Sequence record: PZ445426.1
From: a phage
Length of the DNA stretch: 58,342 bases
Direction: 5' to 3' (one strand)
Shown here: positions 21,981-52,350 of the stretch, piece by piece
Layout: every line of letters starts with the position of its first letter
How positions within the stretch are numbered: position 1 is the stretch's first letter
The notes under the pieces: model-generated
Told to the model about the DNA's origin: nothing
Database searches by the model: none
The model's input: the letters and a program-made list of their open reading frames with translations, nothing else
Made by a program: the position numbers and the translations under genes

Positions 21981-22107
21981 GGCTGTCAATCCTAATTTAC
22001 AAAATCTTTACATTTGGATCATTGTAAAAAGCATGTTAAGGGGTATGCTTTACTTCGTAACCAGTTGGTTACATCCGCTTAACAAATCCATATATGGAGA
22101 TTTTCCT

Positions 22108-45230: not shown

Positions 45231-47561
45231 GCTTAAGTCTTTGAAAACACTCTCAATTGACTCGTCTATATACCATCCCAACCCCCTGAAATTACGCTTC
45301 AATGCATCCTCACGCGTAACCGGAACAAGCGCGCCCATATCTACAAGTTGTTTGATAGTGAGGTCTGTTGCAGTACCTGCTCCCATCCTGTGATTCTTGA
45401 ATGCTGCTAGCCCGTAGGTTCTGCGTGTGATAGTTGCCTTCGGAATAATACCGTCAACGCGCAGCTCCTTACGATCACATGCAATTTTACCGCCAAGATA
45501 GTCTTTGCAGACCTGACAGATAGCCTTCACACGCGTTTCATCATCACCGCCAATAGTACCTTTTTCCCATGCGTTGATCATGATGTCCTGCCCATGCGTG
45601 ACAAAATCTACCGCCCATTGCATGTGATTGGGTTGAACGACAGGATTGATCCAGTTTTCCCCCACTGCTAACAGGGAGGCGAGACGCAGAGCTTTAAGGT
45701 GAGCACGGTTCCACGGCTGACGAATTGCTTCGTCTTTTGTTGCGTTAATGTGTTCATCGCACAACAAGTTAAACTCCCGCTCAATCCTTGCAGCTTCCGG
45801 GCTTAACTGGACGGTAACGGTCTGAAACTTTGCCATTGTCACTAACGTGTGGTTAACAAGATGACAGACCATGTCCTTTAATTGTTGGGGCATTGTAATT
45901 TCAGGATTCTCGTTTGCAGGAACACGATCCCCTTCATATTGCACAATGTGGAAACGGGACAAGAAACCGTCTTCCATCATTTCACGTGTTAACGCTTCAA
46001 AGAAGGTGTCTGGTGTTGTTTCGCCCAGCACGCTGAACGCCACCCCTTCCATCGTTTTGGTATTATTAGCCTTATCAGAATATCCGATACCGCCAACAAC
46101 ATCCATCGCACCAGATTTTTGATACACATCTGTGATAGTTTGCTTCAGGGTATAGTTTGCAGTGCCAGGTTGAGCCGTTGCCATACCTTTAATGGTTTTA
46201 CCAAACTCACCGTTAATATTCACAAACGAAGTGTGATCCGCAAAACTTTTACGCAAGGCAGGACCGGAAGCATAGTTAGTCATGTCTACAAATTCATGCA
46301 CTTGCGGTAATTGCTCCCCTACTTGCTTACAGATATAGCTGGGCCCAGCGTGAAGCATTTCTTTGCCCACACCTGATCGGGCAATGAGCACAAAGTAACC
46401 GTTCAACCCTGTGTTGGTGATAGTATTCCATACCTTACCGCACACACCAGACAGAAATGCTAACGATGCGGTGATTGCAATTTCTTTAACCGGACGTTGC
46501 GATGCTTTGTAGATGTACTTCGCAAGCTCCCCAGCAAGCCCCGGCGGCCACTCAATAGCGGTTGCATCAATAGACGTACTTTCTGCGACCACTATTTCAC
46601 CAGAAGGGCTAACTGTGGTTACAGGCATCTCTGTTACTTGCTGCATTGTGCTGTGTGCTGCTTGCATACGGGCAGCGTAATCCCGCGCCAGCGCCGCTAC
46701 GTTTTCCTGGGCAATGCGCTCACGCTCCATGCGACCTCGACACATACGCAAGCAACGGTCAATATGAACATTGTTCTTATTAGCCTTCTCACGTTTGCCC
46801 AGTGCACTGTAACGAAATAAACGGCGACATTGCTCATTACTTTCCGTGTAGAATGCATACATAGAAATAAGGGCAAGGTCTGCTTCAGACTGGGAGGGGA
46901 ATCCCATTTCAACCCATTCACCATTAAATAACCGCGCATACTTATCGCCGTTATCTGCTTCAAGTGCACGCTGGTGAATAGTTGCATCATCTTCTACCGG
47001 ATCTTTTTCTACCAGTTCAATTTCATATGTCTTGCGCTGAAGATCAATTTCATTCACAAGCATAGTAAGGTAATGATCACGTTCTGCAACTGGTTTGTTG
47101 TAGACGGGATTACCCGTGCAGATAATAAAACGCTCCTGACTATAAACCTCGACACCATCACGTCGACGACCTTTACCGATGTTACCTCTTAACCACAGGT
47201 GAACACCCAAGCCTGAGCGACTCACTTCGGTGTAAGTATCGAACGCAGTCATGATCTGTTCGAAGCGGCGCAACTGCTCCGGCGTCGTGTGCTTCTTGGG
47301 ATCAGGTTCATTGGTTGCATTCTTCACATCCAGGTCGATGCAGGTGAACGGGTCTTGTGCAGTAAGCACGAAGCCAATATAAGGTTTATTGAAATGAGCG
47401 GCGCAACCTTTGGCAGCTTCAAACGTCATAAGGATATCCGGATCGGTAACGTCCGCCGCCATCAAACGTCCGATATCGTTGTCCCATACAAGCGGCTTTT
47501 TATCCGCATCGGCCACCGCCCATTGTGGGAAAGCTTTAATTTCAGCGGGAAACAGTTCCAT
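45225..47561 (-). CDS. primase-polymerase (Prim-Pol, AEP superfamily) with C-terminal extension
   Basis: Prim-Pol motifs: CIDLDV (DxD), SRSGLGVHLWL (SGxGxH), ERFIICTGN; 778 aa. Confidence 0.65.
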   Translation of the reverse strand: MELFPAEIKAFPQWAVADADKKPLVWDNDIGRLMAADVTDPDILMTFEAAKGCAAHFNKPYIGFVLTAQDPFTCIDLDVKNATNEPDPKKHTTPEQLRRFEQIMTAFDTYTEVSRSGLGVHLWLRGNIGKGRRRDGVEVYSQERFIICTGNPVYNKPVAERDHYLTMLVNEIDLQRKTYEIELVEKDPVEDDATIHQRALEADNGDKYARLFNGEWVEMGFPSQSEADLALISMYAFYTESNEQCRRLFRYSALGKREKANKNNVHIDRCLRMCRGRMERERIAQENVAALARDYAARMQAAHSTMQQVTEMPVTTVSPSGEIVVAESTSIDATAIEWPPGLAGELAKYIYKASQRPVKEIAITASLAFLSGVCGKVWNTITNTGLNGYFVLIARSGVGKEMLHAGPSYICKQVGEQLPQVHEFVDMTNYASGPALRKSFADHTSFVNINGEFGKTIKGMATAQPGTANYTLKQTITDVYQKSGAMDVVGGIGYSDKANNTKTMEGVAFSVLGETTPDTFFEALTREMMEDGFLSRFHIVQYEGDRVPANENPEITMPQQLKDMVCHLVNHTLVTMAKFQTVTVQLSPEAARIEREFNLLCDEHINATKDEAIRQPWNRAHLKALRLASLLAVGENWINPVVQPNHMQWAVDFVTHGQDIMINAWEKGTIGGDDETRVKAICQVCKDYLGGKIACDRKELRVDGIIPKATITRRTYGLAAFKNHRMGAGTATDLTIKQLVDMGALVPVTREDALKRNFRGLGWYIDESIESVFKDLSK

Positions 47562-47842
47562 TATTTACCTTCGTTAGCAATCACTTTTAACAGGGATGTA
47601 ATCACATCCTTAACTTTATCAACAGTGCTGAAAGCTGTATCTAACGTGGCATAGGTGCCAATGTACTGATATTCATCCATGACTCTGATAAATGCGCGGT
47701 ATTGTGTATTTCCACCTTTTAATTCTGCCTCCTGATCCACAGGTTCAAAATAAGCGCATACATCCTCAAATTGTCCTTCTCCCAGCCATGGAGCAGGGAA
47801 TCGAATCATCTCTTTACCTATAAATGGAATTTTTCTAGCCAT
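47561..47842 (-). CDS. hypothetical protein
   Basis: ATG 47842 with GGAGG RBS; stop overlaps primase start. Confidence 0.4.
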   Translation of the reverse strand: MARKIPFIGKEMIRFPAPWLGEGQFEDVCAYFEPVDQEAELKGGNTQYRAFIRVMDEYQYIGTYATLDTAFSTVDKVKDVITSLLKVIANEGK

Positions 47843-48134
47843 AAATCTGTTTCCTCCGCCATTCTTCATATGCTGAATTATTTGCATCGTATACTTCGCA
47901 AGCGTCTTTCATGCTGTCATACAGTCCAAGGAAAGTTCGCCTTGTTTCTCCGCCTACGTCTACCCATGTTAATCGGGCGAGCCATTTACCCGTTTTGTGA
48001 TCGAAAGTAACGCCCTCACGCCCGCTTACATTTTCCCGCGGCACTCGGGGCTTTCGGCGTGCGAGCCCACGACCTTTGAAATTACTGCCCGGGACAGTCC
48101 TGCACTTACGACCCACGACCAACCTCCGGCACAA
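47835..48134 (-). CDS. AP2-like DNA-binding domain ORF (no ATG start; possibly fused to upstream HTH ORF)
   Basis: GVTFDHKTGKWLARL...LGLYDS resembles an AP2 domain; track start is TTG and overlaps the HTH ORF in another frame. Confidence 0.3.
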   Translation of the reverse strand: MCRRLVVGRKCRTVPGSNFKGRGLARRKPRVPRENVSGREGVTFDHKTGKWLARLTWVDVGGETRRTFLGLYDSMKDACEVYDANNSAYEEWRRKQIYG

Positions 48135-48321
48135 CCCGACCAGCGTGCAACATCAAGATAGGTTCTGCAACTTCGCGCACGTAAACGTAAACGTTAGCAA
48201 TCTTAACTTCGCCCGGCAGCTTACCGCGAAGCGAACATAATTTGCGACGGCTAAGACCGAAGCGGTTTTCAATTTCTGATGTGGTTATGTATTTAAGATC
48301 AAATTCTTTTTGATGGTCCAT
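48106..48321 (-). CDS. helix-turn-helix DNA-binding protein
   Basis: 71 aa; ITTSEIENRFGLSRRKL resembles an HTH; AGGAGG RBS. Confidence 0.45.
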   Translation of the reverse strand: MDHQKEFDLKYITTSEIENRFGLSRRKLCSLRGKLPGEVKIANVYVYVREVAEPILMLHAGRVVPEVGRGS

Positions 48322-49155
48322 ATCTACCTCCTAACAGCACTATACACAATACATAGTAAGACAGCCACAATTATTCCACACGAAGTTATGATGTGAGCGG
48401 ATTGTTAATATATAACCACATGTGATGGAAAGTTTTGGGTAGGAATAGTTGGTGCTCCACAGTTTGCACAATGTGACGGAAAGTTTTGTGAGTTTTGCGA
48501 AGTTTTGCGAAGTTTTGTGGTGCCACTGTTGCTAAAAACTTTAATAAAAACAATAAGTTGGTGCAGTAAGTTTTTGCGTTTTGGGGTAAAACGCATTTTT
48601 TACCCTAACACCCAAATCCCGACTGTTAGTAAAAAACGTATATAAATCAATAGGATAGATACTAAATGAATAGTGGATGGAATGGGTAGAAATCCAAATG
48701 ATGGAAGTGGAATAATTTATTCCTACTTGATAGAATAATGGAATCGGTACTCCAGAGCGCAAAAACCTAAAACTTTCAGTCAACAGACTAAAAACGGATA
48801 GAAACTAAAAGTTAATAAGTAATACCATAAATATATATAAAATAAGGATTTATTAGTAATGTATATAGTACCTATTGGTATTATTTGAATGTTTTTGGGT
48901 CACTGTTAAAAAGTCCCAAAACTCACAAAAAGTGAAAGAATACAATTCGTGACAGGATTGTTAATGAAATATGGTGTATGGATATACAGTATTATTCCAG
49001 ATTCCGGAATAATTGGAATAATGGAATAAATTATTGAACTATTGTAATCGGAAGGTATATCAAGCTATAATGCGCTTAATCGCGGGATATTGGAGGAGGA
49101 CTTTATTGCGCGGTTAACCGGACCAGTAGGAGGGCTGGCCCGGAGAAGTTAGAAT
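48322..49155. promoter_or_regulatory. 830-bp AT-rich non-coding region with iteron-like and inverted repeats (candidate replication origin / early control region)
   Basis: no credible ORF; multiple short direct and inverted repeats read directly. Confidence 0.45.
48427..48520. repeat. array of five (G)AAGTTTTG(C/T)G direct repeats
   Basis: GGAAAGTTTTGGG, GGAAAGTTTTGTG, AGTTTTGCG, AAGTTTTGCG, AAGTTTTGTGG read directly. Confidence 0.6.
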
Positions 49156-49332
49156 TTATTTGCGGACGAATACAGAGCCGACAAATAATGTTGACTGAGT
49201 AGCAGCTTGCTCGATTAATTCGCCAACAAGCTGGGACTGCGTCAGAGGTTTAAGGCCTTCTTTGGCGCGTGCTTCATTTACACGGCGCTGAAGGTCTTTT
49301 AGGTATTGAGTTGCGAAGCTGTCTAATTGCAT
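49156..49332 (-). CDS. small hypothetical protein (58 aa, below ORF-track cutoff)
   Basis: ATG with perfect AGGAG RBS; hand translation MQLDSFATQYLKDLQRRVNEARAKEGLKPLTQSQLVGELIEQAATQSTLFVGSVFVRK. Confidence 0.4.
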   Translation of the reverse strand: MQLDSFATQYLKDLQRRVNEARAKEGLKPLTQSQLVGELIEQAATQSTLFVGSVFVRK

Positions 49333-49378
49333 TTTCGTTACTCCTAGGGCTCCCGCAGAAGCCCGTTGGTTGATGTGG

Positions 49379-49513
49379 TTATAGAACGCGCCAGTTAGTT
49401 ATTAAACCTTGTGCGAGCATAAACTTGCCAGTTTGCTCCGCGTCGTAGAGGTTATCGAAAAGTTCTTCTACTTCCCAACCGCTACCGAAATATTTTATTT
49501 CTAAAGTGAACAT
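49379..49513 (-). CDS. small hypothetical protein (44 aa, below ORF-track cutoff)
   Basis: ATG with AGGAG RBS; hand translation MFTLEIKYFGSGWEVEELFDNLYDAEQTGKFMLAQGLITNWRVL. Confidence 0.35.
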   Translation of the reverse strand: MFTLEIKYFGSGWEVEELFDNLYDAEQTGKFMLAQGLITNWRVL

Positions 49514-49566
49514 ATTAAACTCCTTTGCTGTTAATGATATAATTATAGGTCAGTTTAAAGGAAAGA

Positions 49567-50112
49567 TCAAGCATCTAAACCATTATACTTGCGCCAGGCG
49601 TAGAACTGAATGGCGACCGTTGTCCCGTTGTAAGAAGGCATTGCCGCTTTCATTTCTTTCAGCTCCGGCGTGCGGCCCAGTTCGGCTAAAAGTTTATCGC
49701 CCATTGCCCACACTTCGGCGGTTTTTCCTTTGAGAGGCTTGCGAGCGCCATTTTTGAAATCACAGCGAGCAGCTTTTGCGTGTTTCATATCTTTCTCTTC
49801 CTCCTGCTCCAGAGCTTCGAGGCAGCTTTTGACGATTTCCGGATTTACCATCGGGCGCAGTACCGAGACGCTGGCAGCTGGCGCGGCGGTCGGTGCCGGG
49901 ACTTTCTGCTCCGGCTGTTGCGCTTTTTTATAGTCGCGCAGTACCTGAAGCACTTCCTTCTCGACGATGTAAAAACCAATCTCATCCTGATGGATTAACT
50001 GCTCGTGTGCATCGCGTGCAACCTGGCCCCAGCGGGTCTTAAGGGCGCGGCGTGCATTCGTTTTCATGGTGTAACGCATTTTATCCTGTTCGCGGTGAGT
50101 TACTTTAGACAT
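49567..50112 (-). CDS. hypothetical protein
   Basis: 181-aa ORF near the start of the minus-strand early operon. Confidence 0.45.
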   Translation of the reverse strand: MSKVTHREQDKMRYTMKTNARRALKTRWGQVARDAHEQLIHQDEIGFYIVEKEVLQVLRDYKKAQQPEQKVPAPTAAPAASVSVLRPMVNPEIVKSCLEALEQEEEKDMKHAKAARCDFKNGARKPLKGKTAEVWAMGDKLLAELGRTPELKEMKAAMPSYNGTTVAIQFYAWRKYNGLDA

Positions 50113-50198
50113 GGTATATTCCTTCTGTTAGATTGTTTAGTAGTCTTGTTAAGTTGTACTTATTATTGCCCACTAAGTTGAAGTAGGCAAGATATAAA

Positions 50199-50762
50199 TC
50201 AACTATTTCTGATATTCTTTAGAGCTTGTGTACAAAAGAAAACATCCAGCAAAACAAGTTTTCCGTCTTTTACCGCCACATTGCGGGGACTGATTTCAAA
50301 CCACATTTGCGGACCAATATTAGCGCAAGCATCCAAAGCTTCCAGGAGCACATCTTTAATGTCTTGAGCCAGGTCGCTATTACTGAAAGCATCATATAGA
50401 TAGCTATAGTTGTCATATGTGTTACGCGGCATCTCTAACCCTGCGCACAAGCTGCGGAGTTGTTTATAGAGTGCGTATTGCTCAGGTTGTAAAGCGCTTT
50501 TTAAGCTGCGGACACGAGGGTAATACTCCATTTCGTAGACACCTGTGTCTATCATTGTGACATGGGGAAATAATTCATGCTCAGGAAACCATCCCCATGC
50601 CATGCATTCTTTAATAGGGTCGCAAGATTTTAGAAGTACGCAACCTGAGTCCAGAAGGTATGCCTTAGTGAAAGCGCCCTTGCCAATTAGTTTAGTAGCC
50701 ATGTTGTGCTCATTAATGTGGTTAAGCAGTATTGCTTTGTTGAAGTAATAATAGCCTTGCAT
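50199..50762 (-). CDS. hypothetical protein
   Basis: 187-aa ORF; first gene downstream of the divergent control region; start uncertain. Confidence 0.45.
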   Translation of the reverse strand: MQGYYYFNKAILLNHINEHNMATKLIGKGAFTKAYLLDSGCVLLKSCDPIKECMAWGWFPEHELFPHVTMIDTGVYEMEYYPRVRSLKSALQPEQYALYKQLRSLCAGLEMPRNTYDNYSYLYDAFSNSDLAQDIKDVLLEALDACANIGPQMWFEISPRNVAVKDGKLVLLDVFFCTQALKNIRNS

Positions 50763-51160
50763 CGTGATATTGAATAGGCCAAAAGTGCTATTTTAGATCA
50801 CTATTACATCTACAGCTTTGCAGTAACGCTACGCTAAAAATGCAAAGTCTTACGTTTGCTAAACATGTAGATTTTGTGCACATCACTCTTAGTACGTATA
50901 ACGTCTATTATGTTAAATAGCTAAGTTATTGATTTATGGTAAATCTTGTATCAATTCGGACGTTATAGGCGTCTAACATATTGATTTATAAGGATGTAGA
51001 ATTTTGCTGTTTGTAGCGCATAAAAAGGAACAAACCGGGATGTCATAAAATGACATGTGTTTTGTCAGTATAGATGGCACGTTTGGGCTAGACATAGATC
51101 AAGTCATGGCGTACTATATAGTCAAAGGAAAGATAAAGCCGAAAGGCGGAGGAAAATAAA
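50763..51160. promoter_or_regulatory. divergent intergenic control region with 17-bp palindrome ATGTCATAAAATGACAT (51040..51056)
   Basis: about 400 bp between divergently oriented gene blocks; palindrome read directly. Confidence 0.45.
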
Positions 51161-51310
51161 ATGAGAAAGTTTAAAGTCATGTACTACGGTAACTATATTG
51201 GGGACGTTAAAGCTCCGAACCGTGCAGAAGCAGAAGGTTTCGTTCGCGCAGAGATGCGACTTGGAATCGCCGATTTTGCAGCTATTATTGAACTGGTAGA
51301 GGTATTCTGA
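51161..51310 (+). CDS. small hypothetical protein (49 aa)
   Basis: ATG with GGAGG RBS; first plus-strand early gene; below ORF-track cutoff. Confidence 0.4.
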   Translation: MRKFKVMYYGNYIGDVKAPNRAEAEGFVRAEMRLGIADFAAIIELVEVF

Positions 51311-51311
51311 T

Positions 51312-51455
51312 ATGGCACGCAAATATTCGCTTACACGCGCACAGCACGCGTTATTATTGCAGGTTATGCGCATGGAGTACGAAGAGACTACATGGGCGCA
51401 AGCCATGCAAACTGGGCGCGAGTTCTACGCGCAACTAATAGCACAAAATGCCTAG
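51312..51455 (+). CDS. small hypothetical protein (47 aa)
   Basis: ATG 2 nt after the upstream stop; hand translation MARKYSLTRAQHALLLQVMRMEYEETTWAQAMQTGREFYAQLIAQNA. Confidence 0.3.
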   Translation: MARKYSLTRAQHALLLQVMRMEYEETTWAQAMQTGREFYAQLIAQNA

Positions 51456-51514
51456 ACAACATGATCGGTCTGGTGGATACTACACACATCAACAACGCAA
51501 CGGGGAAAAACAAA

Positions 51515-51700
51515 ATGTTAATCTTAATCATGATGGTCATCGCAGTAGTAAGTCCACTGGTAGCACTGATCGTTAGCGAAGTAATGGATGCGAAGTGGGA
51601 TCGTCAATACAACGAAGTAATGGAACAGCGGTATGCAGAGCGCCGCGCACGAAATGGGGAACAGCGCTATAACGCACACAGCGCCACGCTAGCGAGCTAA
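51515..51700 (+). CDS. small membrane protein
   Basis: internal ATG of ORF 51392..51700; hydrophobic helix MLILIMMVIAVVSPLVALIV. Confidence 0.35.
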   Translation: MLILIMMVIAVVSPLVALIVSEVMDAKWDRQYNEVMEQRYAERRARNGEQRYNAHSATLAS

Positions 51701-52098
51701 TGTACAAAGGTAATGGTAATGCATTAGCTCGGGCAAAACAGGCGCACAGCGTCGCGCACAGCTCGCACAGCGCACACAGACCCACGCAGGTCCAGCCGCG
51801 CGACCCGACCCATCCTTTTCCAGGTACTTGGATCGCTGGGGCGTGCCCTGTCTATCCTGATAGTAAGTCCACGCCTAAATCTCACCTGTCACATAGCCCA
51901 TCCACCTACATCCATGACCCCACCTACCTTCTTTTTGAATATATTGCGCTCATCCTTTCTAAATATATGGATTTTGGTAGTAAATTCTGAGTCGTCAACG
52001 TATAATTCGTCTTGTAGCTGCTCCATAGCTACCATCTTTAAGCGGATGCAACCAATTTCTATCAATTCACACCTGTTTTAGAGCATCAAGGAGGTATT

Positions 52099-52350
52099 AT
52101 GTGCAACTCCAGTGCAAGCGCTACACCCAGTACCTCCAGCAATGTGGTTACAGAGGTAAATGCAATGCGATTAGGTCCATATCGCGGCTATTATGGTCGT
52201 GCTGCATGGAATGACGCTACTCAACGTTTTGAAGGCTGGATTATCTGCCCGGAACGTGTTAAATTTCACTCCGTAAAAGAGAAAAATATCGTTCTTAATT
52301 TTCAAAAATGTGTCACTAAATATGTAGAGGAGCAAGAAGAATGCGTGTAA
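52099..52350 (+). CDS. hypothetical protein
   Basis: 83 aa; AAGGAGG RBS. Confidence 0.45.
   Translation: MCNSSASATPSTSSNVVTEVNAMRLGPYRGYYGRAAWNDATQRFEGWIICPERVKFHSVKEKNIVLNFQKCVTKYVEEQEECV

Follow-up and report, generated by a model that had tools for sequence, protein, structure and literature searches.

The Pe/Pc region of phage Mu carries an IHF site between divergent promoters that are used by the host sigma-70 RNA polymerase. In the OR region of phage lambda, the promoters PR and PRM are combined with three 17-bp operators, and a palindrome in the region studied here resembles lambdoid operators in its 17-bp, 6-N5-6 geometry. A homologous region is present between CPT_Seurat66 and CPT_Seurat67 of Escherichia phage Seurat (KM236243), for which only ribosome-binding sites are annotated and no promoter or operator. 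We analyzed a phage DNA of 58,342 nucleotides (record PZ445426.1, the whole of which is called the window below), in which a sequence-only reading had pointed out the palindrome and proposed divergent early promoters with a shared operator. Like Mu Pe/Pc, the window presents putative opposed host-type promoters at the boundary of two arms, with IHF-consensus sites between them; unlike those of Mu, they are separated by about 380 bp without any overlap, and neither a repressor gene nor an operator array was found. What the window shares with lambda OR is a divergent intergenic region with a 17-bp site built of symmetric 6-bp half-sites, but the site is single, overlaps no -35 or -10 element and has no cI- or cro-like gene next to it, and the phage belongs to a virulent group. 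The Seurat region is 86% identical to that of the window and has a conserved block, the first IHF-type site, the palindrome half-sites and the putative rightward promoter (P_R) in common with it, whereas its palindrome spacer reads TTAAC and its second IHF-type site is degenerate. We consider it probable that the region contains two separate host-type promoters, P_R and a leftward promoter (P_L), with an optional cassette between them which would modulate P_R.

The window represents a Seuratvirus (Queuovirinae) genome with about 93% identity to Escherichia phage Seurat. A 2-kb stretch around the region matched Seurat over its full length with 92.9% identity and showed patchwise matches to 33 other phage records, mostly of E. 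coli phages; every matching record that was opened belonged to Seuratvirus (Queuovirinae). Open reading frames of at least 110 aa are located on the plus strand from position 1 to about 22.7 kb and again from 51.16 kb to the end, and on the minus strand between about 23.5 kb and 50.7 kb. Gene layout agrees with this in the annotated relatives, with genes for primase, helicase, polymerase and preQ0/DpdA functions in the leftward arm, while the rightward arm continues from small unknown genes via a lysis cassette to the terminase gene. From the layout of the reading frames and the annotated relatives, positions 50703-51160 are therefore the main divergence point of the two arms, and the flagged region is the main minus/plus strand switch of the genome. 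The cumulative GC-skew minimum is located at about 48 kb, away from this switch. The literature searched contained no transcript mapping for Seuratvirus or Nonagvirus, and 'early' timing of the divergent transcription is plausible from gene content alone.

For the comparison we used about 30 related sequences, which provided 28 full-length loci for the cassette, 20 distinct sequences for P_R and 28 for P_L. Loci carrying the conserved 85-bp block were collected by a sensitive BLAST search with the intergenic region as query, and a gapped pattern derived from the block yielded 16 further loci from viral (4) and metagenome (12) collections. The distant Klebsiella phage K4PH164 was added via a weak BLAST match to the block, and an exact 32-mer of the core block had no match in IMG/VR.

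The gap had been given as about 400 bp between gene starts at 50762 (minus) and 51161 (plus). The plus-strand start, which has a GGAGG motif upstream, was confirmed, but the minus-strand start at 50762 is probably wrong, and the sequence comparison makes 50702 the more likely one. The ATG equivalent to 50702 was invariant in six aligned relatives and kept by most of the 28 distinct sequences, and it is preceded by a Shine-Dalgarno motif, AGGAG in Seurat and GGAGG in the SA126VB-type phages. The ATG at 50762 lacks such a motif and sits within the conserved non-coding block, and a 5-nt indel in the SA126VB-type phages puts its equivalent out of frame with the gene. The depositors of Seurat annotated the start at the equivalent of 50702, whereas it was called at the upstream ATG in the CAjan record; the start at 50762 is probably an artefact of a reading frame that happens to stay open. 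Because of this revision, the intergenic region extends over 50703-51160, or 458 bp. Its features and the adjoining genes are as follows.

50199-50702, minus strand: first leftward gene (PHROG 11084), coding for 167 aa of unknown function, start moved from 50762
50703-51160: divergent intergenic control region, 458 bp
50713-50797, no strand assigned: 85-bp block of high conservation, with 99-100% identity among about 19 Seuratvirus records
50748-50753 (read 50753-50748), minus strand: candidate -10 element TATTAT of P_L; CTATTAT invariant in 28/28 distinct sequences
50777-50795, no strand assigned: conserved element GGCCAAAAGTGCTATTTT; its minus-strand reading CACnTTTGGCC covers about -46 to -36 of P_L and runs into an A/T-rich part
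50808-50872, no strand assigned: long inverted repeat, in which ATCTACA / TGTAGAT form the outer and GCTTTGCA / TGCAAAG the inner arms, then TTTTGTG
50922-50934, minus strand: IHF-consensus site 1, AATCAATAACTTA (the first TTGATTTAT motif), a perfect match to WATCAANNNNTTR
50973-51002, plus strand: weak candidate internal promoter CTAACA-18-TAGAAT, matrix score 8.4
50974-50986, minus strand: IHF-consensus site 2, AATCAATATGTTA (the second TTGATTTAT motif), 52 bp from site 1 in the same orientation
51040-51056, no strand assigned: palindrome with half-sites ATGTCA / TGACAT, 5 bp apart, centred at about -76 from the predicted P_R start
51062-51067, plus strand: conserved TTGTCA, which adds a third TGTCA half-site 7-8 bp beyond the palindrome
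51089-51117, plus strand: putative P_R with -35 TAGACA, 17-bp spacer and -10 TACTAT, from consensus scan, matrix and conservation
51148-51152, plus strand: Shine-Dalgarno motif GGAGG of the first rightward gene
51161-51310, plus strand: first rightward gene, coding for 49 aa of unknown function

The product of the first leftward gene had no sequence match in Pfam, NCBIfam or the PDB, and these searches did not support a kinase identity, as annotated in a relative and apparently echoed by a GxGxxG-like motif. The same gene contains a perfect 7+2+7 palindrome, TAGACACCTGTGTCTA, at 50536-50551, which presents the TAGACA hexamer of the P_R -35 element on both strands.

That promoters diverge from this region was supported by comparative footprints for one promoter in each direction, although at positions other than the features pointed out in the sequence-only reading. 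The rightward candidate agrees with the sigma-70 consensus in 5/6 positions of TAGACA and 4/6 of TACTAT, with a 17-bp spacer, an A at -11 and a T at -7. The two hexamers and the 17 bp between them are kept without change in 20/20 distinct sequences as to bases and distance; the spacer sequence itself is variable, and the DNA flanking the promoter upstream and downstream falls into two unrelated families. P_R was found at the expected distance upstream of the Shine-Dalgarno motif and ATG in every lineage, and no second TAGACA-N17-TACTAT with fewer than two mismatches is present in the window. The matrix score of P_R is 8.9, and 162 sites across the window score at least 9; the case for a promoter rests on conservation and position, not on the matrix score. 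From these elements we infer a start near 51124 and a 37-nt leader carrying the GGAGG motif. The spacer also contains a GATC (Dam site) at 51097-51100, which is present in 18/20 distinct relatives and shifts by 1 nt between the two flank families, meaning that its presence, not its exact position, is conserved. In two phages, WildeMaa (L004, about 1625-1868) and SLUR75 (L008, about 1640-1880), P_R is separated from the first rightward gene by a G+C-rich insertion; it comprises about 250-270 nt, contains several hairpin-forming stretches and forms a long leader.

The leftward candidate is located in the 85-bp block, which occurs once in the window and is flanked by mosaic DNA that is non-homologous between Seuratvirus records. 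The invariance of CTATTAT extends to the distant K4PH164-like and STP-SP5 lineages, and TATTAT is always 32-50 nt upstream of the Shine-Dalgarno motif and ATG of the first leftward gene, whichever gene this is. In the Klebsiella phage K4PH164, the block likewise precedes a leftward gene, with no strand switch at that place. A P_L start is predicted near 50741, which would give a 39-nt leader to the ATG at 50702. The sigma-70 matrix score of P_L is only 6.4 because its -35 is poor: no recognisable -35 hexamer precedes the -10 element at a distance of 16-18 bp, where the sequence is TATTCA, TAATCA or ACACCA, depending on the lineage, and the final CA alone is conserved. The invariant parts among the 28 distinct sequences are, in leftward direction, CAC.TTTGGCC, then this CA, then CTATTAT; the distance from CAC.TTTGGCC to ATAATAG is fixed at 22 nt, apart from a 1-nt deletion in one sequence, and the intervening sequence is variable. 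P_L would thus need an UP-like element or an activator, and the invariant CACnTTTGGCC with its A/T-rich stretch probably stands in for the -35.

On the plus strand, GGCCAAAAGTGCTATTTT also offers an extended -10 element, TGcTATTTT (50786-50794), which is a possible second rightward promoter with a start near 50801. The -10 hexamer at this place reads TCTTTT in slur01, TATTTA in the K4PH164 group and CATAAT in STP-SP5, and substitution of the critical A (slur01) or of the final T (K4PH164 group) makes this element less certain. The change in slur01 (L015, the IMG/VR copy) consists of TGCTCTTTT in place of TGCTATTTT at the equivalent of 50790; it would take the key A from the plus-strand -10 but not affect the leftward elements. 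One position within the block also differs from the window in Greed and KurtStettler. GCTATTWW as a recurring promoter motif was discarded, its 18 copies genome-wide against 12.7 expected being not significant.

Between the two candidate promoters, a cassette of about 280 bp (about 50800-51080) holding the palindrome and the TTGATTTAT motifs is present in 8/28 full-length loci, namely the window, SLUR76, SHIN8, L021, Seurat, SLUR75 and WildeMaa, with SLUR26 added by identity. Seven of the 28 loci have 1-4 direct repeats containing ACCAGG at this position, in another seven the block runs almost straight into an A/T-rich stretch and P_R, and the remaining six (STP-SP5, K4PH164-like and others) carry other sequence and no match to P_R. 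The ACCAGG repeats are about 21 nt long, end in ACCAGG(G/T)G and follow each other at 27-36 bp between block and P_R, for example in CAjan (L003, 1697-1820), GottfriedDienst (L005, 1694-1818) and Dru_SM1 (L011, 1693-1821); they look like iterons or a transcription-factor array. An annotated CAjan CDS (L003, 1723-1932) which overlaps both these repeats and P_R is probably spurious. The weak candidate promoter inside the cassette is partly conserved, its -10 reading TAAAAT in most relatives and TAAAAA in Seurat.

The observation that TTGATTTAT motifs recur in the region held up, with copies at 50929-50937 and 50981-50989. Together with two minus-strand copies at 48642-48650 and 50194-50202, the window contains four exact copies against 0.93 expected, a number reached by 0/100 shuffles, and the extended 11-mer TATTGATTTAT has three copies against 0.06 expected. 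Both copies in the cassette coincide with matches to the IHF core consensus WATCAANNNNTTR, which itself occurs at chance level in the window (4 matches against 3.98 expected), with 2/4 falling within the 458-bp region. Site 1 is part of a 45-nt stretch that is nearly invariant among cassette-bearing relatives, in which WATCAA and TTA are conserved and the N4 between them varies (TAAC, TAGG, CAAC). For site 2, a perfect match is confined to the window, SLUR76, SHIN8 and L021, and Seurat, SLUR75 and WildeMaa have a degenerate version (TTGTTTT). The 5' flanks of the candidate sites, ACCATA and CTTATA, are only moderately A/T-rich.

The palindrome was confirmed in position, but its 7-bp inverted arms enclose an AAA that is not symmetric, and the 17 bp are not palindromic throughout. 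This sequence, ATGTCATAAAATGACAT (ATGTCAT-AAA-ATGACAT), is unique in the window, and no second copy was found in the genome even with two mismatches allowed. In the three cassette lineages on which the comparison is based, the half-sites are identical at 12/12 positions, whereas the spacer agrees at only 2-4/5 (TAAAA, TTAAC in Seurat, or TTTAC) and the identity of the flanks drops to about 30% when the window lineage is compared with the other two. The palindrome always starts 49-50 bp upstream of TAGACA, in a sample of 8 loci only. In the window it ends 33 bp before the P_R -35 and is about 290 bp from the P_L -10, with its centre about 300 bp from the P_L start. This pattern fits a site for a dimeric protein modulating P_R. 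With its centre near -76, the palindrome is not in phase with the positions that class I activators classically occupy at CRP-type promoters, and CRP, LexA, PhoB and FNR are presumably not its binders, because half-site sequence or spacing does not fit their consensus sequences. The palindrome arms were also considered as -35 elements of back-to-back promoters, but no usable -10 element is present at 15-19 bp on either side.

A Pfam scan of 20 neighbouring proteins detected no helix-turn-helix domain, and no phage open reading frame co-occurred with the cassette when Seurat, WildeMaa and SHIN8 (with cassette) were compared with CAjan and GottfriedDienst (without). This screen covered the window's open reading frames of at least 35 aa ending beyond position 22,000 and returned spurious ones only, including one that overlaps the right edge of the cassette and P_R. 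Because no phage open reading frame travels with the cassette in these genomes, the palindrome binder, if any, would come from the host or be a phage protein that all Seuratviruses share.

In the arrangement we favour, host RNA polymerase would most likely start rightward at P_R (near 51124) and leftward at P_L (near 50741). IHF would bend the DNA at the two candidate sites within the cassette, a dimeric DNA-binding protein of host or phage origin would occupy the palindrome, and the cassette would modulate P_R, with no shared operator serving both promoters. A different view is that the palindrome has no function, being a chance or remnant inverted repeat in an A/T-rich accessory insert, and that P_L and P_R alone matter. 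Perfect inverted repeats with loops of 0-6 and arms of 7 bp or more number 47 in the window (29 +/- 7.5 after shuffling), and because 24% of the shuffles of 50703-51160 contain at least one of them, the palindrome alone is not beyond chance. Its absence from most Seuratviruses that keep both promoters, the missing second copy and the missing co-segregating protein gene point the same way. Half-sites that stayed identical while spacer and flanks diverged argue for a function, as does the fixed distance to P_R, and we regard a functionless palindrome as unlikely, although it deserves to be kept in mind. Far less probable, and the least probable of the readings considered, is a lambda-like arrangement, in which one operator and a phage helix-turn-helix repressor control overlapping divergent early promoters. 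The geometry of the palindrome recalls lambdoid operators, and the site does lie between divergently transcribed genes; yet the supported promoters, with predicted starts near 50741 and 51124, are about 380 bp apart, and the palindrome overlaps the -35 or -10 elements of neither promoter. Nor is it one of several copies with a repressor gene nearby: it is a single site, no helix-turn-helix domain appeared among the neighbouring proteins, and no gene co-occurs with it. Seuratvirus-group phages are moreover described as virulent (PMC13577005, for CSP1). Because most Seuratviruses lack the palindrome yet retain P_L and P_R, it cannot be an essential shared operator, and this part of the sequence-only reading is not supported.

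The cassette might also be, or contain, a replication origin or a small non-coding RNA instead of serving as a platform for transcription factors. Such a reading draws on the A/T-rich character of the segment with its IHF-type sites and inverted repeats, and on the iteron-like ACCAGG repeats found at the same place in relatives lacking the cassette. In addition, the 65-nt inverted repeat at 50808-50872 is located just downstream of the possible plus-strand extended -10 (50786-50794), which points into it, and a short RNA of about 75 nt from this region is possible. RNAalifold gave an outer stem of 7 pairs with one compensatory change (C-G to U-A) and one wobble change (U-A to U-G) across three lineages. 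Against this stand folding energies no better than those of shuffles (z = -0.6 and -1.7) and the lack of any Rfam match at E-values up to 5 across 48000-52200, and we dismissed a structured leader or non-coding RNA on the folding scores and the restriction of the compensatory change to a single outer stem. An intrinsic terminator was rejected as well, the hairpin of about -6 kcal/mol being not G+C-rich and no better than shuffles; the T-rich tail after it is found in the window lineage alone, and the terminator scan made no call. The disruption of the plus-strand -10 in slur01 and the dispensability of the cassette in many relatives speak further against an origin or RNA, and both the GC-skew minimum and denser repeats are found at about 48-49 kb instead. 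We therefore judge this reading to be very improbable and retain two separate promoters with an optional P_R-modulating cassette.

A second, larger non-coding region at 48322-49155 is a candidate for a replication origin or a second control region. It contains 4-5 AGTTTTG copies phased at 10 bp (48479-48519), with inverted ones near 48770 and near 48917. GGAATAA is repeated at 49005-49035, the palindrome GGAATAATTTATTCC is located at 48709-48723, and the region also includes a terminator-like hairpin (48575-48595) and, at 49042-49071, TTGTAA-18-TATAAT, which is close to a consensus promoter. A minus-strand open reading frame of 99 aa at 47835-48134 with a sub-threshold Pfam hit to the AP2 DNA-binding domain (E = 1e-4, 23 bits against a cut-off of 33) adjoins this non-coding region at 48.3-49.2 kb and overlaps the reading frames at 47561-47887 and 48106-48321.

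In the GA and GGC motifs of phage CAjan, dPreQ0 (a 7-deazaguanine) takes the place of G (PMC7544227). Close homologues of DpdA (99.7%), FolE, QueD, QueC and QueE are encoded in the window, and the invariant G of TAGACA, the G of each TGACAT half-site and both GGCC strands in the P_L block are part of GA or GGC motifs. Recognition by RNA polymerase or regulators might accordingly differ between modified virion DNA and newly made DNA; such a link between modification and transcription is speculation, and its combination with a swappable regulatory slot appears rather improbable to us.

Seuratviruses are common E. coli phages; the BASEL collection includes them, and their 7-deazaguanine DNA has been a subject of study. 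The analysis provides coordinates for the putative promoters of both arms, a corrected gene start and an exchangeable cassette between the promoters, which can be used in annotation, phage engineering and the design of start-site mapping. The region is an ordinary divergent control region, and no general concept is changed by it. Among Seuratviruses, the space between the promoters may represent a swappable regulatory slot, into which the lineages plug an IHF-site and palindrome cassette, ACCAGG arrays or nothing, and which may tune early transcription to host factors.
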